64,000 nucleotides of DNA from the NCBI GenBank assembly GCA_035762565.1, contig DASTOJ010000206.1, positions 3,913-67,912 of the forward strand, read 5' to 3'. The notes below the pieces were generated by a model. The model saw nothing but the letters and a program-made list of their open reading frames with translations. It was not told where the DNA came from and did not search any database. The position numbers were made by a program, and so were the translations under genes. Below, in pieces: positions 6,571 to 48,699 of the stretch. Numbering within the stretch: position 1 is the stretch's first letter; every line of letters starts with the position of its first letter. The stretch is from Candidatus Methylomirabilota bacterium. GTDB taxonomy: Bacteria > Methylomirabilota > Methylomirabilia > Rokubacteriales > CSP1-6.

Positions 6571-7002
6571 ATGCTTCGCTTCACCAAGCGTGCTGACTAC
6601 GGCCTGATGGCGATCCATTACATCGCCGTTCACGACGACCTGGGGGCCGTCAGCGCCAAGCGTATCGCGGAGGAGTTCTCGATTCCACAGGAGCTGATGG
6701 CCAAGATCCTCCAGCGGCTGGCCAAGGAACGGCTGATCGAGAGCCACAACGGGCCCAAAGGCGGCTACGTCCTGTCGCGGCGGCCGGCCGAGATCACCGT
6801 GGGCGAGGTGATCCGGGCGCTGGAGGGGCCGATCAACATCGTCTCGTGCCTGGAGGACGACGACTGTCCGCAGATGGAGCGCTGCAGCCTCCGGTTGCCG
6901 GTGAAGAAGATCCAGGCGGCGATCACGCAGATGCTGGACACGATGAGCCTGGCGGAGCTGACGAGCCAGGATGTGCCCGAACTCCTGACGATCAGCAAGT
7001 AG
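6571..7002 (+). CDS. iscR: Rrf2-family transcriptional regulator, IscR-like
   Basis: N-terminal MLRFTKRADYGLMAIHYIA winged-helix signature. Three-Cys cluster motif C-x5-C-x5-C (SCLEDDDCPQMERC). First gene of the isc operon. Confidence 0.85.
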   Translation: MLRFTKRADYGLMAIHYIAVHDDLGAVSAKRIAEEFSIPQELMAKILQRLAKERLIESHNGPKGGYVLSRRPAEITVGEVIRALEGPINIVSCLEDDDCPQMERCSLRLPVKKIQAAITQMLDTMSLAELTSQDVPELLTISK

Positions 7003-7018: not shown

Positions 7019-8245
7019 ATGGCGCTGAAGTTTCCGATCTTCATGGACGCGCAGTCGACCACGCCCTGCGACCCGCGGGTCGTCGAGGCGATGATCCCGT
7101 ACTTCACGGAGAAATTCGGTCACCCGGCCAGCCGTAACCATCCGTTCGGCTGGGAGGCCGAGGCGGCCGTCGACGCCGCGCGCGCGCGGCTGGCGCGTCT
7201 GATGGGCGCTCGAGACCCCAAGGAGCTGGTGTTCACCTCGGGGGGCACGGAGTCGATCAACCTGGCGCTCAAGGGCGTGGCCGAGATGTACCGCGAGAAG
7301 GGTACGCACATCGTCACCACGGTCATCGAGCAGCGGGCGGGGATCGACGTCGCCAAGCGCCTGGAGCGCCAGGGCTTCCAGGTGACGTATGTCCCCGTTC
7401 AGGCCGATGGCCTCGTCGACCCGGACGAGATCCGCAAGGCGATCACCGACAAGACCATCCTGATCTCGGTGATGCTCGCCAACAACGAGATCGGCACCAT
7501 CCAGGACGTGGCGGCGATCGGCAGGCTGGCCAAGGACAAAGGCGTTCTCTTCCACACCGATGCGACCCAGGCCCTCGGGAAGGTTCCCATCGACGTCGAG
7601 GCCATGGGCATCGATCTGCTGTCCTCCACCGCGCACCTGCTGTACGGCCCCAAGGGCGTGGGGGCGCTCTACGTGCGACGCAAGGGGCCGCGGGTGCGAC
7701 TGGCGCCGCTCTTCGACGGTGGCGGCCACGAGCGCGGCATGCGCTCCGGCACGCTGCCGGTGCCGCTGTGCGTGGGCTTCGGGCGGGCCTCCGAGCTCTG
7801 CCAGGAGAGCATGGCGGAGGAGAACGCGCGGCTGGCGAGGATGCGCGACCGGCTCCAGGACATGATCCTGGCGAGCGTGGACGAGGCGTTCCTCAACGGC
7901 CGGCCCGACCGGCGGCTGGCGGGGAACCTGAACATCTCGTTCGCCTACGTCGAGGGCGAGTCGGTGCTCATGGGCCTCAACCGGGAGACCGCCCTGTCAT
8001 CCGGCTCGGCCTGCACCTCGGCCACCCTGGAGCCGTCCTACGTGATCGCGGCCCTGGGGGCCAGCGCCGAGCTGGCCCACTCCTCGATCCGATTCAGCCT
8101 GCACCGGTTCAACACCGACGAAGAGGTGGAATACGTCGGCCAGCGCACGATCGAGGTCGTCAAGCGGCTGCGGGACATGTCGCCGCTCTACGAGCTGGCC
8201 AAGGAAGGCGTCGATCTGAAGTCGATCAAGTGGAAAGCCGAGTAA
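7019..8245 (+). CDS. iscS: IscS-like cysteine desulfurase homolog lacking the PLP-binding lysine (probable non-catalytic variant)
   Basis: Collinear with E. coli IscS along its length (GGGHERGMRSGTLPV, SSGSACTSATLEPSYV, AHSSIRFSL, C-terminal LYE..GVDL..I.W). However [12 protein letters not shown] is SSTAHLLYGPKG (CAC CTG CTG TAC at 7634-7645) and TEHKAV is IEQRAG. Confidence 0.85.
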   Translation: MALKFPIFMDAQSTTPCDPRVVEAMIPYFTEKFGHPASRNHPFGWEAEAAVDAARARLARLMGARDPKELVFTSGGTESINLALKGVAEMYREKGTHIVTTVIEQRAGIDVAKRLERQGFQVTYVPVQADGLVDPDEIRKAITDKTILISVMLANNEIGTIQDVAAIGRLAKDKGVLFHTDATQALGKVPIDVEAMGIDLLSSTAHLLYGPKGVGALYVRRKGPRVRLAPLFDGGGHERGMRSGTLPVPLCVGFGRASELCQESMAEENARLARMRDRLQDMILASVDEAFLNGRPDRRLAGNLNISFAYVEGESVLMGLNRETALSSGSACTSATLEPSYVIAALGASAELAHSSIRFSLHRFNTDEEVEYVGQRTIEVVKRLRDMSPLYELAKEGVDLKSIKWKAE

Positions 8246-8260: not shown

Positions 8261-8671
8261 ATGGCATACAGCGACAAGGTGGTGGACCACTACAACAACC
8301 CGCGCAACGTGGGGTCCTTCGGCAAGGACGTCGCGGGCGTGGGCACGGGGTTGGTGGGGGCGCCGGAGTGCGGCGACGTCATGAAGCTGCAGATCAAGGT
8401 GAATCTCGAGACGGGCCTCATCGAGGACGCGAAGTTCAAGACCTTCGGGTGCGGCAGCGCCATCGCCTCCTCGAGCCTGGCCACCGAGTGGCTCAAGGGC
8501 AAGACGGTCGACGAGGCGGCCAAGATCAAGAACACCGACATCGTGAACGAGCTGAAGCTGCCGCCCGTGAAGATCCACTGCTCGGTGCTGGCCGAGGACG
8601 CCATCAAGGCGGCCCTGGCCGACTACAAGGAAAAGCACGCACCGGCCGAAGCCGGCGCGGCATCCAAATAG
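8261..8671 (+). CDS. iscU: Fe-S cluster assembly scaffold IscU
   Basis: YNNPRNVG, three ligand Cys (ECGD, FGCGSAIAS, IHCS) and the LPPVK HscA-binding motif. Confidence 0.95.
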   Translation: MAYSDKVVDHYNNPRNVGSFGKDVAGVGTGLVGAPECGDVMKLQIKVNLETGLIEDAKFKTFGCGSAIASSSLATEWLKGKTVDEAAKIKNTDIVNELKLPPVKIHCSVLAEDAIKAALADYKEKHAPAEAGAASK

Positions 8672-8690: not shown

Positions 8691-9020
8691 ATGGCCGTCG
8701 CGCTGTCGGAGAACGCGAGCAAGCACGTGAAGCAGCTCAGGCAGGCCCAGAACCTGCCCGAGAACGTCTTCCTGCGCATGGGCGTGAAGGGCGGCGGGTG
8801 CTCGGGCATGAGCTACAGCCTCGAGTTCGACACCGAGCTGGGCCCGCACGACAAGGAGTTCGAGATCGACGGGGTCCGGGTGGTCGTCGACAAGAAGAGC
8901 TACCTCTACCTGAACGGCACCACGCTCGACTACGTGCAGCAGGGGCTGACGGGCGGCTTCACGTTCATCAACCCCCAGGCCAAGTCGAGCTGTGGCTGTG
9001 GGACCTCGTTTTCGGCGTAG
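8691..9020 (+). CDS. iscA: Iron-sulfur cluster insertion protein IscA/HesB family
   Basis: GGGCSGMSY and C-terminal CGCGTSF motifs. Confidence 0.9.
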   Translation: MAVALSENASKHVKQLRQAQNLPENVFLRMGVKGGGCSGMSYSLEFDTELGPHDKEFEIDGVRVVVDKKSYLYLNGTTLDYVQQGLTGGFTFINPQAKSSCGCGTSFSA

Positions 9021-9102: not shown

Positions 9103-9753
9103 ATGAGTGATTTCTTCCAGGTGTTCGGGCTCGAGCGCAAGCTGGGCCTCGACGTGGCCGCATTGCAGCGACGCTTCTACGAGCTGTCGCGGCAGTGGCA
9201 CCCCGACTTCCACCAGGCGGCGGCGCCGGCCGAGCAGGCGCGGGCGCTGGAGGAGTCGGCGCGGGTCAACGCCGCCTACCGCGCCCTGCGCGACCCGATC
9301 TCCCGCGTCGAGTACCTCATCCGGCTGGAAGAGGGGCGGGACACCCGGGAGGGCGCCCTCGTGAAGCCCAAGGCGCCGCCCGAGTTGCTGGTGGAGATGT
9401 TCGAGATCCAGGAGGCTCTCGAGGACGCGAGGGCCGGTACCCTGGACGACGCCACCCGCGGCGCGCTGCGCGCGCAGCACGAGGCGCTGGCCTCGCGCCA
9501 GGCGGAGGGCGAGGCTGAGCTCGTGGGGCCGCTCAGCCGGGCCTGGGACGACGCCGCGCCCGGGGACCGGCCCGCCGCCCTGGCCGCGCTGAAGGAGGCG
9601 CTCGCAACCCGCGCCTATCTGCGAACCGTCATCGACGACCTCGGCACCGCCCTGGAAACGTCGCGGGACGACGAGGGGCGTCACGGCTGCGCCGGGGCGC
9701 CCCGAGCGTCGGGGGGGATGGGGGGCCAGGTCGGGGCCCCCCATCCAGACTGA
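9103..9753 (+). CDS. hscB: Fe-S protein assembly co-chaperone HscB (J-domain)
   Basis: J-domain with HPD (LSRQWHPDFH) and its position between iscA and hscA. GAGGA RBS 6 nt upstream. Gly/Ala-rich C-terminal tail is longer than typical. Confidence 0.85.
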   Translation: MSDFFQVFGLERKLGLDVAALQRRFYELSRQWHPDFHQAAAPAEQARALEESARVNAAYRALRDPISRVEYLIRLEEGRDTREGALVKPKAPPELLVEMFEIQEALEDARAGTLDDATRGALRAQHEALASRQAEGEAELVGPLSRAWDDAAPGDRPAALAALKEALATRAYLRTVIDDLGTALETSRDDEGRHGCAGAPRASGGMGGQVGAPHPD

Positions 9754-9761
9754 GAACAGGC

Positions 9762-11639
9762 ATGTCACGCATCGTCGGCATCGACCTGGGAACCACCAAC
9801 AGCCTGGTGGCCTACGTGGACGAGCGTACCGGACTGCCGGTAGTGATCCCGGACGACCAGGGCCGCCGCCTGCTCCCGTCCGTGGTGGCGTTCACGCCCG
9901 ACGGCATCGTCGTCGGCGAGGGGGCCCGGCGCCAGCTCGCGCGGCGACCGGCCGATACCGTGTTCTCGGTCAAGCGGCTGATGGGCCGCGGCTGGGAGGA
10001 CGTCAAAGACGAGCTGCGCTACCTGCCGTTCCGCGTGCTGCCGGGCGAGGGCGCCGTGAAGCTGGCGGTGGGCGGGCGCGAGGTCACGCCGCCCGAGGTG
10101 TCCGCGAGCGTGCTGAAGGCGCTGAGGGAGCGCGCGGAGACCCACTTCGGCGAGCCGGTCGAGAAGGCCGTCGTCACCGTGCCGGCGTACTTCAACGACA
10201 GCCAGCGGCAGGCGACCAAGGACGCCGGGCGCATCGCCGGCCTCGACGTCCTTCGCATCGTCAACGAGCCGACGGCGGCCTCCCTCGCCTACGGCCTGCA
10301 CCGGCTGGGGCAGGGCGTCGTCGCCGTATACGACCTCGGCGGGGGCACCTTCGACATCTCGATCCTGCGCGTCAAGGACGGGATCTTCGAGGTCCTGGCG
10401 ACGAACGGCGACACGCACCTGGGCGGCGACGACTTCGACCGCGTGCTGGTGCTGTGGCTGCTGGAGGACGTCCAGGCCCGCCACCACGCCGAGCTCGACC
10501 GCGACTGCGTCGAGCTCGCGCGCGACAACGAGGCGATGCAGGAGCTGCGACTGGCCGCCGAGGCCGCCAAGATCCGCCTCTCGAGCGACGAGAGGACGAT
10601 GCTGACCATTCCGTTCGCCGGCTTCACCTACCGCCGGGAGATCACCCGCGCCGACGTCGAGCGGCTGATCGCGCCGCTGGTGGCCAAGACGCTGGGGCCG
10701 TGCCGGCAGGCGCTGGCCGACGCCGGGCTCACGCCGGCCGCCATCGACCAGGTGGTGCTGGTGGGCGGCTCCACGCGGGTGCCGCTGGTGCGGCGGCGGG
10801 TGCAGGAGCTGTTCGGCAGGCCGGCGCACAGCCAGCTCGACCCCGACGAGGTGGTGGCGATGGGCGCGGCGGTGCAGGCCCGGATCCTGGCCGGCGGCAT
10901 CACGGACATGCTGCTGCTCGACGTCACGCCGCTGTCGCTGGGCATCGAGACGCTGGGCGGCATCGTGTCGGTCCTGATTGCGCGCAACACCACCATTCCG
11001 ACCAGCGCCCGCGAGATGTTCACCACGTCAGTCGACGGCCAGACGGTCGTGGACATGCACGTCGTGCAGGGCGAGCGGGAGCTGGCCAAGGACAACCGCT
11101 CGCTAGCGCGCTTCGAGCTGCGAGGGATCGACCCCATGCCGGCCGGCATGCCGAAGATCGAGGTGACGTTCCTCATCGACGCCAACGGCATCCTCCAGGT
11201 CCAGGCCAGGGAGCAGCGGACCGGCAAGGCGGCGTCGATCGAGGTGAAGCCGACCTACGGGCTCAGCGAGGCGGACGTCGAGCGCATGGTCGAGGAGTCG
11301 TTCACCTACGCCGAGGCCGACGTGGAGACGCGGCTGCTCATCGAGACGCGCAACGAGGCGGACACCGTGCTCACCCACGTGGACCGCGCGCTGCGCCAGG
11401 CCGGCCCGCTGCTGGACGCCGAGGAGCGACGGGGGATCGAGGCGGCGGTGGCGGCGCTGCGGCAGGCGCGCGCGGGCGAGGACCGCGACCGCATCCGCGA
11501 GCGGACGACCGACCTGAACCGGACGACCGAGCGCCTGGCCGAGGCGATGATGGACGCCGCCCTCAAGGACGCCCTCCGTACCCGGCGCGCGGCCGAGATC
11601 ATGAGCCGGGGGAATCCTCCCGCCGGCGGAGAGTCGTAA
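9762..11639 (+). CDS. hscA: Fe-S protein assembly chaperone HscA (Hsp70 family)
   Basis: [24 protein letters not shown] and [12 protein letters not shown] Hsp70 signatures in isc operon context. Confidence 0.95.
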
Positions 11640-11962
11640 TGGCAGTACACAAGGTCACGTTCCTGCCCTTCAACCGGACGGTCGAGGTCGACGACGAGAA
11701 GTATCCGCTGGCCGACCACGGCCGGCCGGGCTCGCTGCTCGACATCGCGCTGGCCAACGACATCCACCTCGAGCACAACTGTGGCGGCTCGTGCGCGTGC
11801 ACGACCTGTCACGTGGTCGTCAAGGAGGGCGCCGACAACCTCAGCGAGATGCAGGAGGACGAGGAGGACCGGCTCGACACGGCCGTGGGGCTGACCATCC
11901 GCTCGCGGCTGGGCTGCCAGGCGGTGGTCCGGGGCGACGTCGTCGTGGAGGTGCCGGAATGA
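11639..11962 (+). CDS. fdx: ISC-type [2Fe-2S] ferredoxin
   Basis: The ATG at 11639 overlaps the hscA TAA by 1 nt. CGGSCACTTCHV...LGCQ four-Cys adrenodoxin-type motif. Confidence 0.9.
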   Translation: MAVHKVTFLPFNRTVEVDDEKYPLADHGRPGSLLDIALANDIHLEHNCGGSCACTTCHVVVKEGADNLSEMQEDEEDRLDTAVGLTIRSRLGCQAVVRGDVVVEVPE

Positions 11963-12165
11963 GCCTCACGTGGCGGGACGCCGAGGACATCGGGATCGCC
12001 CTCAGCGAGAAGTTCCCCGACGTCGACCCGCTGACCGTCCGCTTCACCGACCTCCACCGCTGGGTCACCGAGCTCCCCGACTTCGCCGACGACCCCAAAA
12101 CCTCCAGCGAGTCCACCCTCGAAAAAATCCAGATGGCCTGGCTCGATGAATACCGCAACCGCTAG
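11959..12165 (+). CDS. iscX: Fe-S assembly protein IscX (YfhJ)
   Basis: ATGA overlap with fdx. 68 aa, MSLTWRDAEDIGIALSEKFPDVDPLTVRFTDLHRWV matches the IscX family pattern. Confidence 0.85.
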   Translation: MSLTWRDAEDIGIALSEKFPDVDPLTVRFTDLHRWVTELPDFADDPKTSSESTLEKIQMAWLDEYRNR

Positions 12166-12280: not shown

Positions 12281-12502
12281 TCACCAGGTGATGACCTGGT
12301 CCGACTCGAAGATGCGCTCGAGAAGCGCCTCCCAGGACAGCTCGTCGGGGACGCGGCAGCGCGTCACCCCGGGCGGCGGGGTGAAATCCGGCGCACCCGG
12401 CAGCATCACGAGGGTGACGTCGTCGCCGGCGGCCTGCTGCTCACCGGCGAGGCTGAGGGCGAGCGGGTCGCCGGCCTTGAGCAGGTGGAGGACACGGGCC
12501 AT
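12281..12502 (-). CDS. DsrH/TusB-like sulfur relay protein
   Basis: 73 aa, last gene of a three-gene DsrE-F-H type operon, start overlapping the upstream stop. MARVLHLL...VTLVML pattern as in TusB/DsrH. Confidence 0.6.
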   Translation of the reverse strand: MARVLHLLKAGDPLALSLAGEQQAAGDDVTLVMLPGAPDFTPPPGVTRCRVPDELSWEALLERIFESDQVITW

Positions 12503-12858
12503 CAGAAGACGAGGAAGCGCCGGCCCTGGCGGATCAGCTTGCCGATCTGCGCCCGCGAGACGCGGACGATCGGATGGCCGCCCTCGTTCCAGTCGGGGTC
12601 GGCCGGGATCGCGTCGGTCTCGACGTGGAAGGGCACGCCCAGGCGCTTGAGGTTGTCCCGGAACTTGGCGATGTCGTCGCCGTCGACGAGGTCGTCGGTG
12701 TCGGCGTCGAGCAGGTGGACGGCCGGGCCGCGCAGCACGAAGGTGACATCGTTCTCGCCGGCGACCACACCCACGCCGATGCGCATCGCCTCGAAGGCGC
12801 GGTGCGACGCGCGCGGGTCGGCCGCGATCACCACCAGGACGGGCTGCGCGTCGGGCAC
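12502..12858 (-). CDS. DsrF/TusC-like sulfur relay protein
   Basis: 118 aa, DsrE-fold pattern (VLVVIAADP...AFEAMRIGVG...VTFVLRGPAVHLL), no Cys, as in TusC/DsrF. Middle gene of the trio. Confidence 0.65.
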   Translation of the reverse strand: MPDAQPVLVVIAADPRASHRAFEAMRIGVGVVAGENDVTFVLRGPAVHLLDADTDDLVDGDDIAKFRDNLKRLGVPFHVETDAIPADPDWNEGGHPIVRVSRAQIGKLIRQGRRFLVF

Positions 12859-12871
12859 GGGCGCGGTGGCG

Positions 12872-13198
12872 TCAGTTCAGCGCGACGAAGCGCTCGGTGC
12901 CGTTGATCAGGTCGGTCAGCACGACGAGGCCGCAGTACGTCACGCGCTCGGCGTCGGCGAGCGGCAGGCCGCGCTTCTGGCAGCCGTAGGCGCACACGAA
13001 GACCCGGGCGCCGCGGTCGGGCAGCGCCCGGATCCTCGGATCGTCCATCGCCCGCACGCCGTCGTCGATCAGGTAGAGATAGAGCTGGGCGCCGCGCGCG
13101 AGCGCGGCCGCGGCCAGGCCGGCCGCGGTCTCGAGGTTACCAGGATGCTCGGGACCGGTGGAGAGCAGCAGACCGAACTTCTTCTTGGCCAGGTCCAT
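12872..13198 (-). CDS. DsrE/TusD-like sulfur relay protein
   Basis: 108 aa with FGLLLSTGP, LYLYLIDDGV and the conserved Cys region VFVCAYGCQKRGL typical of DsrE/TusD. Confidence 0.7.
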   Translation of the reverse strand: MDLAKKKFGLLLSTGPEHPGNLETAAGLAAAALARGAQLYLYLIDDGVRAMDDPRIRALPDRGARVFVCAYGCQKRGLPLADAERVTYCGLVVLTDLINGTERFVALN

Positions 13199-13239: not shown

Positions 13240-14397
13240 ATGAGCCGTCGCATCTATCTCGATCACAATGCGTCGACGCCGGTGCACCCGGAGGTGTTGG
13301 CGGAGATGCTGCCGTATTTCTCCGAGCGGTTCGGCAACCCGTCGAGCGCGCACGTTTTCGGCCGCGAGGCGCGGGCGGGGCTCGACACCGCGCGCGAACG
13401 GGTGGCGCGGTTCCTCCGGGTGGCGCCCGACGAGATCGTGTTCACCTCGGGCGGGACGGAGTCGGACAATCTCGGCGTGAAGGGCCTGGCGTGGGCGCGC
13501 GGGCGCGGCCACCTGATCACCTCCCGGGTCGAGCACCACGCGGTGCTCCGCGCCTGCCAGTGGCTGGAGAGCCAGGGCTTCGCGGTGACGTACCTCGGCG
13601 TCGACGAGCACGGCATGGTCGACCCCGACGACGTGAAGCGGGCCATCCGGCCCGACACGATCGGCATCTCGATCATGCACGCCAACAGCGAGGTCGGGAC
13701 GCTCCAGCCGGTGGCCGCCATCGGTGCCCTCGCGCGCGAGCGCGGCGTGCCTTTCCACGTGGACGCCGTGCAGACCTTCGGCAAGCTCGACCTCGACGTC
13801 GCGGCCGCGCACATCGATCTGCTGTCGTTCTCGGGCCACAAGATCTACGGCCCCAAGGGCGTGGCCGGGCTCTGGATCCGCAAGGGCACGAAGACGGCCG
13901 CCGTCCAGCACGGCGGCGAGCACGAGCGCCGGCGGCGCGCCGGCACCGAGAACCTCCCCGGCATCGTCGGCCTCGGTAAGGCCGCGGAGATCCGGGCCCG
14001 GGACATGCACGAGGAGGCGCGGCGGCTGACGCCGCTGCGCGACCGGCTGTGGGAGGGCATCCAGGCCCGCGTGCCCGAGGTGCGCCTCAACGGCCATCCC
14101 ACCGAGCGGCTGCCGGGGACGGCCAACATCTCGTTCCGCGGCGTCGAGTCGGAATCCGTCGTCCTCGGCCTGGATCTGAAGGGCATCGGCGTGTCGGCCG
14201 GCTCGGCCTGCACCACCGGCACCGTGGAGCCGTCCTACGTGCTGGTGGCCATGGGCCAGCCCCTCGACTGGGCGATGGGCGCCGTCCGTCACTCGCTGGG
14301 CCGCTCGACGACGGGCGAGGACATCGACTACGTGATCGAGACGGTGGAACCGCTGGTGCGCAAGCTGCGGGCGGCGCTGCCCGTGGGCGCCGTATGA
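13240..14397 (+). CDS. nifS: Cysteine desulfurase, NifS/IscS group I (canonical active site)
   Basis: [35 protein letters not shown] (PLP Lys present) and SAGSACTTG (catalytic Cys). ATG at 13240 preceded by GGGGGAGAG. Confidence 0.9.
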
Positions 14398-14777
14398 GAT
14401 ACAGCCCGACGCTGCTCGACCACTTCCTCAACCCCCGCAACGCCGGGTTGATGCGGGAGCCCGACGGTACGGGCGTGGACGAATACGAGGGCTGCGGCGA
14501 TCAGGCGCGCTTTTATCTGAGGGTGCGCGACGGTCACGTGGTCGAGGCGCGCTTCCAGACCTACGGGTGCGGCCCCACGATCGCCGCTGCCAGCGCGGCG
14601 AGCGAACGCGTGACGGGACGCCTGGTGGAGGAGCTGGCGCACCTCAAGCCTCAAGAGATCGAGGACGCCGTGGACGGGTTGCCGGACGACCGCAAGCACG
14701 CCGCCGACGTGGTCGCCGGCGCCCTGCGGGCGGCCGCGCTCGACGCGCTGCGGCGGCGGCAGGGAGGAGTGGCCTGA
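14394..14777 (+). CDS. IscU/NifU N-terminal-domain paralog with only two of the three ligand cysteines
   Basis: ATGA overlap with nif[17 protein letters not shown] and [11 protein letters not shown] are conserved. The IHCS position reads KHAA, and LPPVK reads LPDDR. Confidence 0.8.
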
Positions 14778-15454
14778 TGTTCGAGGCGATCCGCAGTGAC
14801 ATCCGCACCGTCATGGAGCGCGACCCGGCGGCCCGCTCACGATTCGAGGTCCTGCTCTGCTACCCCGGCGTCCACGCCCTGGCCAGTCACCGCTTCGCCA
14901 ACCGGCTGTGGCGTGGCGGGTGGGCGGGCACCGCGCGCTTCGTGTCGCACGTGGCCCGGTTCCTCACCGGCATCGAGATCCATCCGGCGGCCCGCATCGG
15001 CCGCGGCCTGTTCATCGACCACGGCATGGGCATCGTGATCGGGGAGACCGCCGAGATCGGCGACAACGTGAGCCTGCTGCAAGGGGTCACGCTGGGCGGC
15101 ACCAGCACCCGCCGGGAGAAGCGCCACCCGACGCTACGGGACAACGTCATTGTCGGCGCCGGTGCCAAGATCATCGGCGCCATCACGGTCGGCGAGAACA
15201 GCCGGGTCGGGGCCGGCTCGGTCGTGGTGCGGGACGTGCCGCCCAACGCCGTCGTGGTCGGGGTCCCGGGCCGCGTCACCTCGAAGGACGGCCAGCGCGT
15301 GAGCGGGATCGACATGAACATGACGGACCTGCCCGACCCGGTCAGCCGCGCGATCGAACAGCTGGTGGAGCGGATCCGCGGGCTGGAGGCCGACCTCGAC
15401 AGCCTGCGCAAGCTCGTCGACCGCGACGGCCTCCACGGTGAGGAACGGCCCTGA
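14777..15454 (+). CDS. cysE: Serine O-acetyltransferase
   Basis: The ATG overlaps the upstream TGA by 1 nt. [34 protein letters not shown] and hexapeptide repeats. Confidence 0.9.
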
Positions 15455-16011
15455 CCCGCGGGCAGGCCTGGTCACTGCTCACCGAGTTCACCCGGGGCGA
15501 CGGCCTGCGCAAGCACGCCCACGCCGTCGAGACTTCGATGCGCGCCTACGCCGCCCGCTTCGGCGAGGACTCCGAGCGCTGGGGCATCGCCGGCATGCTC
15601 CACGACTTCGACTACGAGATGCACCCGCGCGCGCCCCAGCATCCGGTGAAGGGCGCCGAGATCCTCCTGGCTCGCGGCGTCGAGCGCGAGGTCGTCTACG
15701 CCATCCTCGCCCACGCCGACTACTCCGGCATGCCGCGCGTCTCCCGCCTGGACAAGGCCCTCTACGCCTGCGACGAGCTGACCGGCTTCGTCCACGCCTG
15801 CGCGCTGGTGCGGCCGGGCAAGGTGATCACGGGCCTCGAGGCCGCCTCGGTGCGTAAGAAGCTCAAGGACAAGGGGTTTGCCCGCACCGTGAACCGCGAC
15901 GACGTCTACCGAGGCGCTGCCGAGCTGGGCGTGGACCTCGACGCTCACATCGCCTTCGTCGTCGAGGCGCTGGCCACGGTCGCCCCCGAGATCGGCCTCG
16001 CGCGGGCCTGA
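15451..16011 (+). CDS. HD-domain hydrolase (COG2316-like), apparent CTG start overlapping the cysE stop
   Basis: H...HD motif: KHAHAVE lies upstream of the first ATG (15538), and GMLHDFDYE downstream of it. The frame is open from 15442, and only CTG codons (15451, 15475, 15505) are available upstream of the conserved His. Confidence 0.7.
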
Positions 16012-16087
16012 GCGTGGCGCGCGGCCGTGCGCGCATCGGCATGATGGCCGCTGCAGACGCGGCCTTGCGTGATGGAGAGGACTTCTC

Positions 16088-16378
16088 ATGTGTCGAAACA
16101 TCAAGACTCTGCACAACTTCAAGCCACCGGCCACGGATGAAGAGATCCGGGCGTCATCCTTGCAGTTCGTCCGGAAGCTGAGCGGGTTCGCGCGGCCCTC
16201 CCGGGCCAACGAACCCGCGTTCGCGCTGGCCGTGGATCAGGTGGCGCAGGCGGCACGGAGCCTGCTGGATTCTCTCGTGACGAACGCTCCGCCTCGGGAT
16301 CGCGGAGTCGAAGCGGTGAAGGCCCGCGCCCGGGCAGCGGTCCGCTTTCGCGCTCCCGGTGCGAGCCACGCCCCCTGA
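16088..16378 (+). CDS. DUF2277-like small conserved protein
   Basis: 96 aa. The N-terminus MCRNIKTLHNFKPPATDEEI matches my recollection of the DUF2277 family signature. Confidence 0.55.
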   Translation: MCRNIKTLHNFKPPATDEEIRASSLQFVRKLSGFARPSRANEPAFALAVDQVAQAARSLLDSLVTNAPPRDRGVEAVKARARAAVRFRAPGASHAP

Positions 16379-16404
16379 GCGACGATCGGATCAACCGGCG
16401 CGCC

Positions 16405-17565
16405 ATGTCCCGCGCGATCGCCCACATCGACATGGACGCGTTCTACGCGTCCGTCGAGCAGCGCGACCGGCCCGAGCTGCGAGGTCTTCCCGTCATCGTC
16501 GGCGCCGATCCCCGGGGCCGCGGGGTGGTGTCGGCGGCCTCCTACGAGGCGCGCGTCCACGGCGTGCACTCCGCGATGCCGATCTCGAAGGCCTACCGGC
16601 TCTGCCCGCAGGGCGTCTACCTGCCGGTGGACATGACGAAGTACGCCGGCGTCTCGCGGGAGATCATGGCGATCCTCGGCGACTTCTCGCCACTGGTGGA
16701 GCCGGTGTCGGTGGACGAGGCGTTCGTGGACCTGACCGGGACGCAGACGCTGTGGGGTCCGCCGGCCGAGGCCGTGCGCCGGATCAAGGCGCGGATCCGC
16801 GCGGAGACCGGGTTGACGGCCTCGGCGGGCCTGGCCTCGAACAAGTTCGTGGCCAAGGTGGGCTCCGACCTCGAGAAGCCGGACGGGCTGGTCGTGGTGC
16901 CGCCCGGCGAGGAGGCCGCCTTCCTGGCGCCGCTGCCGATCGAGCGGCTGTGGGGGGTCGGCAAGGCCACGGCCAGGGAGCTGGCCGCACTGGGCGTCAC
17001 GACGATCGGCCAGCTTCAGGCGCTCTCACCCGGCGTGCTCGCCGCGCGCTTGGGCCCGCACGGGCCCGACCTCCGGGCGCTCGCGGTCGGTCGTGACGCG
17101 CGGCCCGTCGAGCCGTTCTCGCCGCCCAAGTCGATGGGCGCCGAGGAGACGTTCGAGCGGGACTGCCGGGACGTCGCGCGGCTGGAGGACACGCTGCGCG
17201 GCCAGGCCGAGCGGGTGGCGCGCGAGATGCGCGCCGAGGGGCTGGCGGCGTGCCGCGTGACGCTCAAGCTGCGGTGGGCGGACTTCCGCACGCTCACGCG
17301 CAGCCACACGGGCGATCCCACCCAGGACGGGCTCGAGATCTACCGGCGCGCCGCCGCCCTGCTCGCGCGCGAGCGCTTGATCCAGCCCGTCCGCCTCATC
17401 GGAGTGTCAGCCTCGACCTTCAGGCCGGAGGCGCGGGGTCAGCTCCCACTGCTCGATCCCGCCGCCGTGCGGCGGGAGCGGCTGGCCCGCGCCGTGGACC
17501 GCATCACGGGACGCTTCGGCCGCTCGGCCATCCTGCCCGCCCGTCTCATCGACCGTCCCGAGTAA
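16405..17565 (+). CDS. dinB: DNA polymerase IV
   Basis: IAHIDMDAFYASVEQRD, SVDEAFLD-like SVDEAFVDLTG, and NKFVAKVGSDLEKPDG Y-family motifs. Confidence 0.9.
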   Translation: MSRAIAHIDMDAFYASVEQRDRPELRGLPVIVGADPRGRGVVSAASYEARVHGVHSAMPISKAYRLCPQGVYLPVDMTKYAGVSREIMAILGDFSPLVEPVSVDEAFVDLTGTQTLWGPPAEAVRRIKARIRAETGLTASAGLASNKFVAKVGSDLEKPDGLVVVPPGEEAAFLAPLPIERLWGVGKATARELAALGVTTIGQLQALSPGVLAARLGPHGPDLRALAVGRDARPVEPFSPPKSMGAEETFERDCRDVARLEDTLRGQAERVAREMRAEGLAACRVTLKLRWADFRTLTRSHTGDPTQDGLEIYRRAAALLARERLIQPVRLIGVSASTFRPEARGQLPLLDPAAVRRERLARAVDRITGRFGRSAILPARLIDRPE

Positions 17566-17576
17566 CGCGCCGCGCG

Positions 17577-17605
17577 TTGGGAACAGCGCGGGAGCGGTAT
17601 ATAAT
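17577..17605 (+). promoter_or_regulatory. Candidate sigma-70 promoter of the liv-type transporter operon (TTGGGA-17 nt-TATAAT)
   Basis: Perfect TATAAT at 17600-17605 inside an AT-rich TATATAAT island in a 70% GC context, with TTGGGA 17 nt upstream. A 15-nt palindrome AACGCGCCGCGCGTT precedes it at 17564-17578. Confidence 0.5.
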
Positions 17606-17684
17606 CCGCGCCACCATCGCGCGACTGAGGGATCATTCAGCCGCCAGCAAGTTCCGGGCACACCCGCTGAGGAGGACGCACGGC

Positions 17685-18887
17685 ATGAGGACCAAAGCAC
17701 TCGCGCTCATCACGGCGCTGACCCTGGCGGTGGTGCCGCCGGCGTTCGCCCAGACCAGGGTGCCCGGTGTCACCGACACCGAGGTCACCGTCGGCCTCAG
17801 CATGCCGCTCTCGGGCGTCGCGGCGGCCTGGAGCAACACGGGCGTCGCCATGGAAGCCTGGGCCAGGCACGTCAACGAGCAGGGCGGGATCCACGGCCGC
17901 AAGCTCAAGGTCGTCATGAAGGACGACGGCTACAACCCGGGGCGGGCCGTCGCTAACATCCAGGAGATGCAGAACGACGTGTTCATGAACGTCGGCCTGC
18001 TCGGCTCCGCCATCCTCAACGCGGCCAAGGACAAGGTGGCCGAGGCCAGGCTGCTGACGATCAATCCCTACGGCAACCCGGCCATCTGGGCCAAGCAGCC
18101 GAAGGACAAGCTCCGGTACGTTTTCGTCAACTACACCGACTACAACGACGAGGGCGAGTTCCTGGTCACCTTCGCGGCCACCAAGCTGGGCGCCAAGAAG
18201 GTGGCGGTCTTCCACCAGAACGACGAGTACGGCAAGGGAGGGCTGGAGGGCGTCACCCGCGGCCTCAAGGCCCTGGGCGGTAAGGCGACGCTGGCCGCCG
18301 CGGTCTCCTACGAGATCACCGACCGCGAGCTGGGCACGCACGCGCTCAAGCTGAAGGACTCCGGCGCCGACACGGTGATCCTCTACCCGACGATCACGCA
18401 CGGCGCCAACGTGATCAAGGAGATGGCCAAGGCCGGCTACCGGCCCAAGCTGGTCGCCTCGTTCCCGCTCGGCGACTACCTGATCATGTACCGGCTGCTG
18501 GGCGATCTCTGGGAGGGCGCCCACTTCAGCATCCTGTCGGGCGCGGCCGTGGCCGGCGACCCGGCGGGCAAGAAGGTGCTCGACGTCCTCACCAAGCAGG
18601 AGCCCAAGCTGGTCGGCAAGGAGAACACCGCGCTGGCCGGCGTCACGGCAATGATCCTGGCCGTGGAGGGCCTGAACCGGGCCGGCAAGAACCTGACGCG
18701 CGACTCGTACGTGGAGGCGATGGAAGGCCTCAAGGGGTTCACCGCCCAGGGGCTCACCCCGCCGATCACGTTCGGACCCAACCGGCGGCATGGCCTCAAC
18801 GCGCTACGGCTGCTGCGGGCGGTCAAGGCGGCGGACAGCTCCTACGCGGAGGTGGTCCCACCCCAGATCTTCCAGCCGCATTTTTGA
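17685..18887 (+). CDS. ABC transporter substrate-binding protein (LivK / Peripla_BP_6 type)
   Basis: Signal peptide MRTKALALITALTLAVVPPAFAQ, GAGGAGGA RBS, and the family-typical GVTDTEVTVG start of the mature domain. Confidence 0.85.
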   Translation: MRTKALALITALTLAVVPPAFAQTRVPGVTDTEVTVGLSMPLSGVAAAWSNTGVAMEAWARHVNEQGGIHGRKLKVVMKDDGYNPGRAVANIQEMQNDVFMNVGLLGSAILNAAKDKVAEARLLTINPYGNPAIWAKQPKDKLRYVFVNYTDYNDEGEFLVTFAATKLGAKKVAVFHQNDEYGKGGLEGVTRGLKALGGKATLAAAVSYEITDRELGTHALKLKDSGADTVILYPTITHGANVIKEMAKAGYRPKLVASFPLGDYLIMYRLLGDLWEGAHFSILSGAAVAGDPAGKKVLDVLTKQEPKLVGKENTALAGVTAMILAVEGLNRAGKNLTRDSYVEAMEGLKGFTAQGLTPPITFGPNRRHGLNALRLLRAVKAADSSYAEVVPPQIFQPHF

Positions 18888-23306: not shown

Positions 23307-23372
23307 CCGGTCGCCGATAATGGCGACCGGCGCGCGTGCCGGGGGGCGGCGAGCGCGGGCGGAGGGTTCGTG

Positions 23373-24254
23373 ATGGAGAGGTGGCTGCAGTATGGGTTGA
23401 CGGGGTTGTCGGCGGGGAGCTTGTACGCGATGGTGGCGCTGGGGATCGTGCTGATCTACCGGTCCACGCGGGTGCTGAACTTCGCCCATGGCGACGTCGC
23501 CACGGTGGCCACGTTCGTGGCGTTCACGCTGCTCTCGCGCGGGTTCTCCTTCCCGGTCGCCCTGCTCGGCAGCCTGGCGACCGGCGCGGTCGTCGGGACC
23601 GGGTTCTACTTCGTGGTCCTCGTCCGGGCCCAGCGGCGCGGCGCCAACCTGCTCGGCATGGTGATCCTCACCCTCGGCCTGGCCCTGATGATCCAGGGCG
23701 TGGTGGTCTACCTGTGGGGCGCCGAGCCGGTCTCGCTGCCGTTCCCCATCTCCGACACGAAGACGTACGCGCTGGGCGGCGTGGTCGTGAGCCAGCTGTC
23801 GCTGGCCACGATGGCGGCCGGGGTTGCCGGCTCGCTGCTGCTGTACCTGCTCGTGCAGAAGACGCGCCTGGGCCTGGCCATGCGCGCGACCTCCGAGAAC
23901 GTCATGGCCGCCCAGACGCTCGGGATCCCGACCCGGCGGGTCCTGGGCGTGTCGTGGGCGGCGGCGTCCGCGCTCGGGGTGGTGGCGGGGATCTTCCTGG
24001 CTCCCGCGCTGCTGCTCGACCCCTTCTTCATGCTGGATCCCTTCCTCAAAGGCTTCGCCGCCGCGGTGCTGGGCGGTTTGAACAGCCTGCCCGGGGCCGT
24101 GGTCGGCGCGCTGCTCCTGGGCGTGGCGGAGTCCTGGACCGGTGCCTACCTGACCATCCAGTTCAAGAACACGCTCGCCTTCGTGATCATCATCCTGGTG
24201 CTGCTCGTCCGTCCTGAAGGTCTGCTGGGCAAGGAATTCAAGGAGCGGGTGTAG
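23373..24254 (+). CDS. livH: Branched-chain-type ABC transporter permease (LivH-like)
   Basis: GLSAGSLYAMVALGIVLIYRSTRVLNFAHGD signature, polytopic. A GTG at 23370 is an alternative start. Confidence 0.85.
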   Translation: MERWLQYGLTGLSAGSLYAMVALGIVLIYRSTRVLNFAHGDVATVATFVAFTLLSRGFSFPVALLGSLATGAVVGTGFYFVVLVRAQRRGANLLGMVILTLGLALMIQGVVVYLWGAEPVSLPFPISDTKTYALGGVVVSQLSLATMAAGVAGSLLLYLLVQKTRLGLAMRATSENVMAAQTLGIPTRRVLGVSWAAASALGVVAGIFLAPALLLDPFFMLDPFLKGFAAAVLGGLNSLPGAVVGALLLGVAESWTGAYLTIQFKNTLAFVIIILVLLVRPEGLLGKEFKERV

Positions 24255-24270: not shown

Positions 24271-24831
24271 TCAGACGAAGATGGCGGCGACGTCGATCGG
24301 GTCGTCCGGGAACGCCAGCGTGGCGACGGCGTCGCCGGCGACCGCCTGCCGGTGCTCCCGATATCGAGGGCCGGAAGGCGAGCGGTACACGTGGACGGTG
24401 TCGGAGTTCGCGTCGACGACCCAGTATTCCCCGATGCCGGCCAGCGCGTAGAGGGCGAGCTTGACGGTCCGGTCGTATTCGAGCGAGGTGTCCGCGACCT
24501 CGATGACGAGCAGGACGTCGTGCGTCGTGGCGCCGGCGCGCCGGTAGGAGCGAGCGCGGAGCAGTGCCAGGTCGGGCTGGGGCAGGGACCGCGGGGGCAC
24601 GCGAATGGGGCCCTGAACGCGCACCCGAGCCCGATCGCCGGCGAGCCTCACGAACACGTGCGTCAGGTTCGTCACGAGCGCCGCGTGCGGATCACCGATC
24701 GGGCTCATCTCGACGATCTCGCCCTCGATGAGCTCGACCCGGTCGTCCTGCTTGAGGATGCCCGTCTCCACCATGCGCTCGTACTCCTCGATGGTGAAGC
24801 GCCGCCGTGGTCGTTCGACGCGGGCTGCCAT
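24271..24831 (-). CDS. Uma2-family (DUF820) putative endonuclease
   Basis: FTIEEYERMVETGIL...RVELIEGEIVEMSP...PDLAL...VIEVADTSLEYDR..K..LYA..GI.EYWVVD is the PD-(D/E)xK Uma2 pattern. Start set at MAARVERP with a GGAGG RBS. Confidence 0.8.
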   Translation of the reverse strand: MAARVERPRRRFTIEEYERMVETGILKQDDRVELIEGEIVEMSPIGDPHAALVTNLTHVFVRLAGDRARVRVQGPIRVPPRSLPQPDLALLRARSYRRAGATTHDVLLVIEVADTSLEYDRTVKLALYALAGIGEYWVVDANSDTVHVYRSPSGPRYREHRQAVAGDAVATLAFPDDPIDVAAIFV

Positions 24832-24997
24832 GCCGAACCTCCGCCGCCAGTATACGCGGGACCCATGCCGATGCCGGGAGGCTACGCCGCTCGTGAGGCG
24901 CCCCGAAAAGACGCGGGATGGATACACCGTTGCCCGCGTCCCGCGCATCGTTTAAACTCACTGAACAGCAATTCATTCGACGGTTGGAGAGACCCTG

Positions 24998-25753
24998 ATG
25001 GAACGCCCGATCGCTTACGACAAGCTCGCGCGCGAGGACCGCTTCGTGCGGATGCGCACGCGCGACGTCGGCGCCCTGAAGATCGAGCAGGGGCTGCCGC
25101 CGTTTCCCGACCTGACCAGCCGCGAGTCGATGCGCGACCGCGTGCACGGCATCCTGGTCGGCGAGCTGCAAGCGATGGAGGGCGCCGGGCGCACGGTCTG
25201 CGACTTCCCCGACGCCCCGTGGGAGTTCACCATGGACATGGCCCGCCAGGTCTGGGACGAGTCGCGCCACGTGGAGACGTACCTGGGTCTGCTCGACCAC
25301 CTCGGCGGGCGCGTCGGCGAGTTCCCGGAGACGACGCTGCTCTGGCGGTGCGCGTGCGCGGAGGACGCCGCCGCCCGTGTGGCCGGCGTCAACCGCGGCC
25401 TCGAAGGCCTGGCCTGCGACGTCTTCAACCAGCTCATCCACATCGCCCGGAAGATCGGCGACCCCGTCATCGAGCGCTCGGTGGACTACGTGCTGGCCGA
25501 CGAGATCACCCACGTCCGCATGGGCTCGCGCTGGCTCAACGAGCTGACCAGGGGCGAGCCGGAGCGGCGGCGGCGGGCCGTCGAGTTCCAGGACTCCATC
25601 GACGAGCGCTTCAACCTCGGGGGTCAGCGCCGGGACGGGCACCACGACGACGTGCCGATCTCGATCGCCAAGGACGCTCGGCGGCTGGCGGGATTCACCG
25701 AAGAGGAGATCGAGCGGCTCGTCAAGAGCACGCAGCGCTCCCAGGTGTACTAG
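24998..25753 (+). CDS. Ferritin-like di-iron protein (DUF455-like)
   Basis: Di-iron carboxylate signature: GELQAME, WDESRH, GLEGLACD and ADEITH (E...ExxH twice). Ends at a TAG that is in frame with the next gene. Confidence 0.7.
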   Translation: MERPIAYDKLAREDRFVRMRTRDVGALKIEQGLPPFPDLTSRESMRDRVHGILVGELQAMEGAGRTVCDFPDAPWEFTMDMARQVWDESRHVETYLGLLDHLGGRVGEFPETTLLWRCACAEDAAARVAGVNRGLEGLACDVFNQLIHIARKIGDPVIERSVDYVLADEITHVRMGSRWLNELTRGEPERRRRAVEFQDSIDERFNLGGQRRDGHHDDVPISIAKDARRLAGFTEEEIERLVKSTQRSQVY

Positions 25754-28329: not shown

Positions 28330-28839
28330 ATGAGCACGGCGATGGTGCGCGACCTGTACGTCTATCACCGCTGGGCCAACCGCGCGCTGTTCGACGTGGC
28401 CGCCGCGCTGGGCGAGGAGGCGTGCGGACGGGAGGCCGGCACGCACTTCAGCGTGCCCACGCTCGCCCGGATGTTCGCGCACGTCTACGGCGCCGACGCG
28501 GTCTGGCTCAACCGCTGGAAAAGCGCGCCGCCCTCGGTCCCGCCGTATCCCGCGCTGGCCTCCATGGCCGAGGTGCGCGCGCGGTGGGACCCGGTCGAGG
28601 CCGAGCAGCGGGCGTTCGTGGACGGGCTGAAGGACGCCGATCTGGAGCGCGTGGTCGAGTACAAGAACACCCAGGGCCGGGCGTTCCGGGCGCCGCTCGG
28701 CGTCCTGCTCCAGCACGTCGCCAACCACGCGACGCACCATCGCAGCGAGATCGCCACGATGCTCACGCTGGTCAGTGGCTCGCCGCCCGACACGGGCATC
28801 AGCACCTGGGAGCTCATCCGGACCGGCCAGCAGCGCTGA
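28330..28839 (+). CDS. DinB-family (four-helix bundle, metal-binding) protein
   Basis: YHRWANRALF near the N-terminus and HVANHATHHRSEI near the C-terminus, typical of the DinB/DUF664 superfamily. Confidence 0.7.
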   Translation: MSTAMVRDLYVYHRWANRALFDVAAALGEEACGREAGTHFSVPTLARMFAHVYGADAVWLNRWKSAPPSVPPYPALASMAEVRARWDPVEAEQRAFVDGLKDADLERVVEYKNTQGRAFRAPLGVLLQHVANHATHHRSEIATMLTLVSGSPPDTGISTWELIRTGQQR

Positions 28840-28841
28840 CG

Positions 28842-48138: not shown

Positions 48139-48699
48139 ATGCAGACCGTGCTGAAGGACGTCGATACCCGGATGAACGCGGCCCTGGACGCGCTGAGCCG
48201 CGAGTTCGCGACGGTCCGGACGGGCCGCGCCTCCACGGCGCTGCTCGACGCGATCCGCGTCGACTACTACGGCACGCCGACGCCCATCAACCAGATGGCG
48301 TCGGTGTCGACGCCGGATGCCCGCACCCTGGTGGTCCAGCCATGGGAGGCCGGCCAGCTCGGGGCCATCGAGAAAGCCATCATGAAGTCGGATCTTGGTA
48401 TCCAGCCGGTCAACGACGGCAAGCTGATCCGGCTCACGATGCCGGCGCCGACCGAGGAGCGCCGCAAGCAGCTCGTCAAGACGGTGGCCAAGATGGCCGA
48501 GGACGCGCGGGTGGCCGTCCGCAACGTGCGCCGCGAGGCCAACGAGAAGCTCAAGACCGCGGCCAAGGACAAGAAGGCTCCCCTCTCCGAGGACGAGGAG
48601 CGCCGCGCTCATGACCAGGTGCAGAAGACGACCGACCGGTTCATCGCCAGGGTGGACGAGCTGTTGAAGAAGAAGGAGCAGGAGATCCTGTCATTCTGA
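48139..48699 (+). CDS. frr: Ribosome recycling factor
   Basis: Full-length Frr pattern (FATVRTGRAS..LLD.I.V.YYG..TP; IRLTMPAPTEERRKQLVK). Confidence 0.95.
   Translation: MQTVLKDVDTRMNAALDALSREFATVRTGRASTALLDAIRVDYYGTPTPINQMASVSTPDARTLVVQPWEAGQLGAIEKAIMKSDLGIQPVNDGKLIRLTMPAPTEERRKQLVKTVAKMAEDARVAVRNVRREANEKLKTAAKDKKAPLSEDEERRAHDQVQKTTDRFIARVDELLKKKEQEILSF

Follow-up and report, generated by a model that had tools for sequence, protein, structure and literature searches.

The stretch of DNA analysed here, referred to as the window, comprises 64,000 nucleotides from a Candidatus Methylomirabilota bacterium of the order Rokubacteriales (contig DASTOJ010000206.1 of assembly GCA_035762565.1). It carries an iron-sulfur cluster (ISC) operon, in which the gene at 7019-8245 encodes a protein of the IscS family of cysteine desulfurases. 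The lysine that binds the cofactor pyridoxal phosphate (PLP) and the histidine that stacks on it are both replaced in this protein. The same replacements are fixed in a clade of Rokubacteria, and a canonical desulfurase of the NifS type is encoded 5 kb downstream. The gene and the codons of most concern are given below; residues are numbered as in E. coli IscS, the reference sequence used being identical to that of PDB 1P3W.

7019-8245, forward strand: gene of the predicted IscS-type pseudo-desulfurase (NF010611, 587.8 bits)
7256-7258, forward strand: ATC, Ile in place of Asp79, the partner of Asp180 in E. coli IscS
7331-7333, forward strand: CAG, Gln in place of His104, the PLP-stacking acid/base histidine
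7637-7639, forward strand: CTG, Leu in place of Lys206, the lysine of the PLP Schiff base
8012-8014, forward strand: TGC, the retained Cys328 of the mobile loop

The open reading frame (ORF) is full-length, with an uninterrupted translation of 408 amino acids. End-to-end alignment was obtained with human NFS1 (E 2e-145) and, in keeping with the first-pass annotation of this DNA, which had been made from its letters, with E. coli IscS (E 2e-141); an exact-sequence look-up of the protein returned no match. Its NF010611 (IscS) score lies above the cut-off of 548 bits, and its TIGR02006 score of 572.2 bits lies below that of 643.2. The AlphaFold2 (AF2) model, for which 113 diverse homologs were given as input, has a predicted local distance difference test score (pLDDT) of 95.8 and a predicted template modelling score of 0.93; a run on 30 near-identical sequences gave a pLDDT of 44.5 and was set aside. 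Lower values in the model are confined to the block of residues 331-340 (72) just after the loop cysteine, as a flexible loop is expected there, and to the extreme C-terminus. The comparison with known structures, which had been proposed in the first-pass annotation, resulted in a close superposition of the model on NFS1 (template modelling score, TM, 0.96; root-mean-square deviation 1.3-1.4 Å) and on E. coli IscS (TM 0.92-0.93), over about 400 residues, the deviations across both ranging from 1.2 to 1.4 Å and the structural alignments showing 52-54% identity. The model and the alignment point to the class V aminotransferase fold of fold type I with an ISC-type C-terminal extension. By sequence, fold, C-terminal tail and operon, the window IscS belongs to the bacterial and mitochondrial ISC-type IscS proteins; it fails two defining catalytic features of that family, Lys206 and His104.

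In E. coli IscS, Lys206 is the general base and the residue of the internal aldimine, His104 lies stacked on PLP and takes part in acid/base catalysis, and Asp79 hydrogen-bonds Asp180, itself a ligand of the PLP pyridine nitrogen (PMC9978102). The three main changes thus all fall in the cofactor environment. Activity is lost in the E. coli mutants H104Q and K206A (PMC9978102). The first-pass annotation had read the Leu codon in place of Lys206, IEQRAG in place of the motif with His104, and SVMLANNE in place of SIMHVNNE, by which His152 becomes Leu; alignment and codon reading confirmed all of these. The exchange of Asp79 for Ile was only implicit in the letters that it printed, and the difference itself is real. 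For the check on an alternative lysine, the alignment shows no lysine gained near the pocket of the window-type IscS as a substitute for Lys206. A compensating lysine elsewhere was rejected, as the lysines gained relative to other canonical IscS lie only in a surface insertion and at the C-terminus, both common to the Lys-containing sisters.

The distribution of these states was followed in two sets of sequences. The 120 best matches to the window protein in a collection of 5.8 billion proteins (86-95% identity) all carry Gln104; position 206 is Leu or Met in 118 of them, Arg in one and Val in another. A scan over genomes taken one per species gave 80 loci, of which 36, nearly all labelled Rokubacteria or Methylomirabilota, combine Gln104 with Leu or Met at 206 (76-93% identity). 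Together with the window these form 37 Lys-less sequences. The 44 sequences compared with them, which come from two sister Rokubacteria-type loci, Nitrospirae, Acidobacteria and E. coli, without exception carry His104 and Lys206. At the codon level, position 104 reads CAG or CAA throughout the Lys-less set (37/37) and CAC or CAT throughout the Lys-containing set (44/44), and position 206 is CTG (14), CTC (11), ATG (10) or TTG (2) in the former and AAG or AAA in all 44 of the latter. A single-step codon route, AAG to ATG to CTG or TTG, is available at this position. At position 79 all 37 Lys-less sequences have Ile, and the sisters have Asp. The presence of the same states in 36 species-level genomes and 120 proteins, with four different codons at 206, excludes chance or read error. 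Among the best 150 representatives of the family at 50% identity, the lysine is missing only in the Rokubacteria cluster and in one Archaeoglobus fulgidus-type cluster (P0200, Lys to Asp).

There are 141 positions invariant in 43 canonical IscS sequences, and 110 of these are unchanged across all 37 Lys-less sequences. His104 and Lys206 are the only invariant positions that are replaced in the Lys-less clade and not in its Lys-containing sisters; the chance that two randomly chosen invariant positions would both be among the five indispensable residues is about 0.001 (our own arithmetic, on the residues of PMC9978102). Further fixed changes specific to the clade are D79I, K116R and D347E. Two canonical sequences (P0375 and P0379) already carry K116R and D347E, which marks them as the nearest active-type relatives of the Lys-less clade. 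Two other changes, N35H (7121-7123; FGHPASR for FGNPASR) and A75G (7244-7246; residue 76), are fixed across the whole Rokubacteria-type IscS lineage, including its canonical members with Lys and His, at positions invariant in the other 43 canonical sequences compared.

In the trees, all of which were built by neighbour-joining, the Lys-less sequences group together beside Lys-containing Rokubacteria sequences, and the window protein lies inside the bacterial ISC-type IscS, next to Nitrospirae. The median pairwise ratio of nonsynonymous to synonymous substitution rates (dN/dS) within the clade, calculated on the same genome pairs, is 0.157 for IscS, 0.122 for IscU, 0.149 for Fdx, 0.238 for HscA and 0.242 for NifS; dS values are moderately high, and at 71% G+C the absolute ratios may be affected by codon bias, the comparison between genes within genomes being robust. 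The iscS gene is thus among the most constrained genes of the operon, and its substitutions are fixed in a monophyletic Rokubacteria clade under strong purifying selection. The earlier description of the gene as maintained and not decayed is in agreement with this ratio and with the 110 unchanged positions. The clade-wide scale of the loss had gone unseen in that annotation, as had a second active-site variant in relatives. Some metagenome-assembled genomes (MAGs) with typical Rokubacteria Lys-less isc loci are labelled as Nitrosotalea sp. (an archaeon), Binatia or Limnocylindria, and a MAG labelled 'Bifidobacterium breve' holds an Acidobacteria-type isc locus (the L030, L015, L049 and L079 group); bin contamination or mislabelling is the likely explanation of these labels.

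Apart from these replacements, the window IscS keeps SSGSACTS with Cys328 as well as GGGHERGMRSGT, and it retains Thr76, Asn155, Asp180, Gln183, Thr203, His205, Thr243 and Arg354. In the Cys loop (321-337), 14 of the 17 positions are invariant in the clade, with conservative variation at 322, 323 and 331. Conservation extends to the helix that contacts IscU (309-316), to the tail at the C-terminus (376-404) and to the Arg220/223/225/237 patch, so that the earlier claim of a retained catalytic-loop cysteine and C-terminal IscU-interaction region is upheld by the alignment. The Arg patch binds CyaY, IscX and ThiI (Shi et al. 2010, PMC2854127). As judged from the predicted model and the alignment, both the fold and the partner surfaces are intact. 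Glu49, on the TusA surface, and Arg340, a contact of ThiI and CyaY, vary in the Lys-less clade and in its sisters alike; this variability hints that sulfur trafficking to tRNA pathways may already have been relocated. Retention of the cofactor pocket was also considered as evidence for PLP use, and was dropped, since it gives no significant signal above background conservation (with 78% of invariant sites retained overall, 0.78^9 comes to about 0.1).

The remaining genes of the operon, the genes between it and nifS, and the nifS cluster are as follows.

6571-7002, forward strand: iscR-like Rrf2 regulator, first gene of the operon (TIGR00738, 122.5 bits, above its cut-off; below the IscR equivalog cut-off)
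8261-8671, forward strand: iscU, canonical scaffold with Cys37, Asp39, Cys63, His105, Cys106 and LPPVK (TIGR01999, 215 bits against 192.4)
8691-9020, forward strand: iscA, A-type carrier (TIGR00049, 121.4 bits)
9103-9753, forward strand: hscB, co-chaperone (TIGR00714, 63.1 bits against 46.75)
9762-11639, forward strand: hscA, chaperone (TIGR01991, 738 bits against 708.6)
11639-11962, forward strand: ISC-type [2Fe-2S] ferredoxin (Pfam Fer2 match; TIGR02007 fdx_isc 95.5 bits, below cut-off)
11959-12165, forward strand: iscX (PF04384, 112.7 bits)
12872-13198, 12502-12858 and 12281-12502, reverse strand: three small DsrE/DsrF-like genes between iscX and nifS, divergent from nifS
13240-14397, forward strand: NifS/MisS-type cysteine desulfurase (TIGR03402, 515.4 bits against 530.75, marginally below)
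14394-14777, forward strand: NifU_N-domain paralog with HA for HC, and hence no third cluster Cys (PF01592, 96 bits)
14777-15454, forward strand: cysE, serine O-acetyltransferase (TIGR01172, 247.8 bits against 210.65)

These profile matches bear out the first-pass claim that the operon is a complete iscRSUA-hscBA-fdx-iscX set, and the gene order is kept in all loci examined. The Rrf2 regulator has the C-x5-C-x5-C motif of IscR and is without the His three residues after the third Cys. Among the three DsrE-like genes, two match Pfam DsrE (33.8 and 17.4 bits) and the third has no Pfam match; NCBIfam gave no TusBCD or DsrEFH assignment for any of the three. The first carries a VCAYGCQKRG motif and the middle one contains no Cys. 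They are syntenic in nearly all Rokubacteria loci, the third being without a tblastn match in about a dozen. When 20 more large ORFs, lying from position 47 to position 48,699, were searched against Pfam, no other desulfurase or SUF genes were detected, only housekeeping genes, which include ribosomal proteins, ArgJ, an RpoD-like sigma factor and ABC transporters. In a part of the window unrelated to IscS, a putative endonuclease of the Uma2 family (24271-24948, reverse strand) and a DUF455 gene (24998-25753) are inserted between a branched-chain amino-acid transporter permease (23370-24254) and the region toward an acyl-CoA carboxyltransferase (28422-30395).

The nifS gene starts with an ATG at 13240 preceded by a Shine-Dalgarno sequence. 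All canonical residues are present in its product, as had been stated of the desulfurase at this position; with these residues, a short C-terminus and an adjacent NifU_N gene, it shows the features of the NifS/MisS type. Among the NifS orthologs, 26/26 keep Asn35, Thr76, Asp79, His104, Asp180, Gln183, Ser203, His205, Lys206, Thr243, Cys328 and Arg354. The arrangement recurs downstream in 27/27 Lys-less loci with at least 5 kb of flanking sequence, the window counted, and the co-occurrence of a Lys-less IscS with an intact NifS is thus obligate. The split of roles between the two proteins, put forward in the first-pass annotation, fits these counts, with NifS as the presumed donor. In all 27 Rokubacteria loci examined (L002-L062, L035, L081), the His105-Cys106 pair of IscU is represented in the NifU_N-domain protein by His-Ala. 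The protein, which thus lacks the Cys that is the third cluster ligand and persulfide acceptor, keeps Cys37, Cys63 and His105, and some orthologs have C-M-D for C-G-D at the first motif; these residues suggest that it may be a sulfur-transfer protein rather than a scaffold. In one Lys-less locus (L020, about 15959-17730), nifS is followed directly by cysE and the NifU-like gene is absent, which makes the latter dispensable in at least one genome. In a long-read MAG (L028, 16011-18215), nifS and cysE match in several frames, which probably reflects assembly indels and not real pseudogenes.

A search with the Lys-containing sister IscS as query, from which 120 clusters were aligned, revealed a further combination of active-site states.

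68 of 120 clusters: canonical state, Asp79, His104, Gln183 and Lys206 kept
27 of 120 clusters: window type, Ile, Gln, Gln and Met or Leu at 79, 104, 183 and 206
25 of 120 clusters: third type, with a variable residue at 79, Gln, Pro or Ser for His104, Glu for Gln183, and Lys206 kept

Examples of the third type are found in two loci (L081, 7164-8393; L083, 10001-11230) and among the protein clusters (P0364, P0348, P0337, P0331, P0316, P0354 and others). The exchange Q183E, like H104Q, abolishes the activity of E. coli IscS (PMC9978102). When the diagnostic columns are masked, the tree places the third type within the canonical sister clade, and it therefore represents an independent event. Its loci have the same synteny of isc, dsrE-like, nifS, nifU-like and cysE genes, with a canonical NifS. 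The occurrence of a second variant in the same locus layout shows that the catalytic constraint on IscS has been relaxed in this lineage.

The best matches to the window IscS in both sequence and structure are E. coli IscS and human NFS1, with which it shares the operon position, the Cys loop, the IscU-binding tail, the Arg patch and all other PLP ligands, and from which it differs in the absence of Lys206, His104 and Asp79. In its probable mode of action it is most like the IscS of A. fulgidus, and yet it falls outside the A. fulgidus clade. The A. fulgidus protein (IscS2; PDB 4HVK, 4EB5, 4R5F), described as an 'inactive cysteine desulfurase paralog', is of the type I fold; it has Asp199 in place of the Schiff-base lysine, shows no activity, binds pyridoxamine phosphate (PMP), keeps the loop Cys and is encoded beside an intact IscU, as in the window (PMC8918507, PMC7585200). 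A role as scaffold partner has been proposed for it, in which it would contribute one Cys ligand to the [2Fe-2S] cluster on IscU (PMC8918507, PMC7585200), and in the (IscS-IscU)2 complex its loop Cys is the fourth ligand of that cluster (PMC8918507, PMC7585200, PMC13066941). The first-pass annotation had cited this archaeal precedent correctly. The A. fulgidus structure superposes on the window model with a TM of 0.88 at 42-44% identity, and 4HVK and 4EB5 rank below all NFS1 and IscS structures as matches. The replacing residue is Asp in A. fulgidus and Leu or Met in the window clade, in which His104 and Asp79 are lost as well; the A. fulgidus-type representative (P0200) forms a separate cluster and has also lost Gln183, His205 and Arg354. 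Furthermore, A. fulgidus IscS belongs to a minimal two-gene iscSU (MIS) system of a sulfide-producing anaerobe and is without the ISC-type C-terminal tail, whereas the window IscS has the tail and stands in a full iscRSUA-hscBA-fdx-iscX operon of soil and groundwater bacteria, with a second, active-type desulfurase adjoining. The kept Thr76, Asp180, Gln183, His205 and Thr243 would be compatible with non-covalent binding of PLP or PMP by the window IscS, and are no proof of it.

Methanosarcina acetivorans IscS1 has also been reported to be without the catalytic lysine, was suggested to be A. fulgidus-like and coexists with an active IscS paralog (PMC7585200); it differs in being archaeal, encoded in minimal iscSU pairs and insoluble on expression, and is likened here by description only. 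With SufE, SufU and TusA the analogy is functional only, as their fold is unrelated, and no family assignment is intended. If Cys328 of the window IscS were to take up sulfur from NifS, the protein would do for NifS what the persulfide acceptors SufE and SufU do for SufS, shuttling sulfur from desulfurase to scaffold. No description of a bacterial Lys-less IscS, or of iron-sulfur biogenesis in Rokubacteria, was found in the open-access literature. A predicted pseudo-desulfurase that belongs to a complete ISC operon and has become fixed throughout a clade rich in species is a new bacterial variation on the A. fulgidus precedent.

Taken as a composite, the reading that we favour and regard as reasonably probable is that the window IscS serves as a non-catalytic, architectural and Cys-carrying subunit of the ISC system, with sulfur supplied by the adjacent NifS. 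The folded, dimer-type protein would no longer be able to carry out PLP chemistry on cysteine, having neither the Lys206 base nor the His104 acid/base. Selection would keep it as a dock for IscU, which would bind by way of helix alpha8 and the C-terminal tail, and for ferredoxin, IscX and partners of the frataxin type, which would use the Arg220/223/225/237 patch. It would also present Cys328 of the mobile loop, to relay a persulfide or else to serve the [2Fe-2S] cluster forming on IscU as its fourth ligand. Cysteine sulfur would be mobilised instead by the canonical NifS, encoded together with cysE, from which it would reach IscU. The parts of this reading differ in strength. The window IscS is almost certainly a functional protein; by comparison with the E. 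coli H104Q and K206A mutants and with A. fulgidus IscS, it is very probably devoid of desulfurase activity; and NifS has about an even chance of being the sulfur donor to the system. A more specific version, in which the Rokubacteria IscS is a dedicated sulfur relay and architectural subunit whose Cys328 is loaded in trans by NifS, possibly via the NifU-like protein (which has no Cys106) or the DsrE-like proteins, before it passes the sulfur to IscU or ligates the cluster, is put forward tentatively and is rather doubtful as it stands.

Several observations weigh against the favoured reading. The NifS has no C-terminal IscU-binding tail. The NifS cluster also stands beside the Lys-containing IscS of sister lineages (L035, L081, L083), from which it follows that the second desulfurase predates the loss of the lysine, having permitted that loss without being specific to it; its presence beside a canonical IscS (L035) also means that co-occurrence is no proof of a donor-acceptor relationship. 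All ligands of the PLP phosphate, the pyridine nitrogen and the substrate carboxylate are kept, which would fit a cofactor-using protein as well. Finally, a neighbour-joining tree with the defining columns taken out sets one Lys-less subgroup beside canonical sequences (P0370, P0342), and strict monophyly therefore rests on four shared derived residues and the unmasked tree.

The position of nifS next to the DsrE-like genes rather than the isc genes, with a NifU-like partner of its own, together with its occurrence beside a canonical IscS in sister lineages, would also suit an arrangement of the A. fulgidus type, in which the dead IscS is purely a scaffold, sulfur comes as free sulfide or low-molecular-weight persulfides, and NifS serves tRNA thiolation or cofactor synthesis and is irrelevant to the ISC system. 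For IscS-IscU of A. fulgidus, it is indeed sulfide that has been put forward as the source of sulfur (PMC8918507). However, the present genomes, to judge by the titles of their records, are from soil and groundwater metagenomes, habitats which are not sulfidic, and the strictly conserved Cys loop argues against a scaffold fed by sulfide. The operon also keeps its ferredoxin, and ISC ferredoxin gives electrons for persulfide reduction (PMC4547094), a step that should be needless with sulfide as substrate (PMC13066941); such an arrangement is considered unlikely. The invariance of the other cofactor and substrate ligands (Thr76, Asp180, Gln183, Thr203, His205, Thr243', Asn155, Arg354) has to be weighed in another connection, namely residual or altered PLP chemistry, by which non-covalently bound PLP would support slow desulfuration, or the use of another sulfur or amino-acid substrate, with some other group as base. 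The trace turnover and PLP-Cys adducts of E. coli K206A (PMC9978102) speak in its favour, as does the Leu or Met side chain, which conservatively occupies the place of the aliphatic chain of the lysine. In that mutant, however, His104 was proposed as the substitute base (PMC9978102), and His104 is replaced here along with Asp79; each of the single mutants H104Q and K206A loses activity in E. coli, no lysine has been gained near the pocket, and the retention of the pocket does not exceed the background. Chemistry of this kind is thus given a poor chance.

Pseudoenzymes often act as regulators, and a similarly poor chance is given to a regulatory or decoy role, in which the protein would titrate IscU, IscX or ferredoxin, or sense cysteine or PLP, and so gate the ISC system without assembling clusters. 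The kept partner-binding surfaces and the co-transcription with the Rrf2 regulator are compatible with such a role. Against it stand the exact operon slot of an essential IscS in 1:1 gene order with iscU, the absence of a second ISC-type IscS nearby, the strict conservation of a Cys loop that would be needed for sulfur or cluster chemistry and not for mere binding, and a conservation as tight as that of IscU (dN/dS 0.157 against 0.122). As for a sequencing or assembly artefact or a decaying pseudogene, its only support is the a priori chance of a single-base error at one codon. It is refuted by the recurrence of these states in 36 independent genomes at species level and in 120 protein clusters, which stem from different projects, by the four codons at 206, and by the intact, full-length ORF with its low dN/dS, and its likelihood is negligible.

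IscS/NFS1 is regarded as the enzyme on which any complete ISC system, bacterial or mitochondrial, must rely to mobilise sulfur. If the more specific version, with a dedicated relay and architectural IscS loaded in trans, is true, two independent routes of inactivation in one phylum (K206L/M with H104Q and D79I; H104Q/P/S with Q183E) would show that the structural role of IscS is essential and separable from catalysis, and this in a bacterium with a complete, mitochondria-like ISC system. The phenomenon is extended from a single archaeal precedent, which has a minimal system and lives in a sulfide-rich niche, to bacteria of oxic soil with a full ISC operon, and the automatic label 'IscS subfamily cysteine desulfurase' is probably wrong on activity for hundreds of database entries. 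The Lys-less clade would represent a natural separation-of-function mutant, in which the catalytic pair is lost and the partner surfaces are under strong selection. As such, it could reveal the non-persulfide roles of IscS, namely the dimer architecture, the docking of IscU, ferredoxin, IscX and frataxin, and the ligation of the cluster by the loop Cys, and it could also reveal whether a desulfurase fold can receive sulfur in trans.

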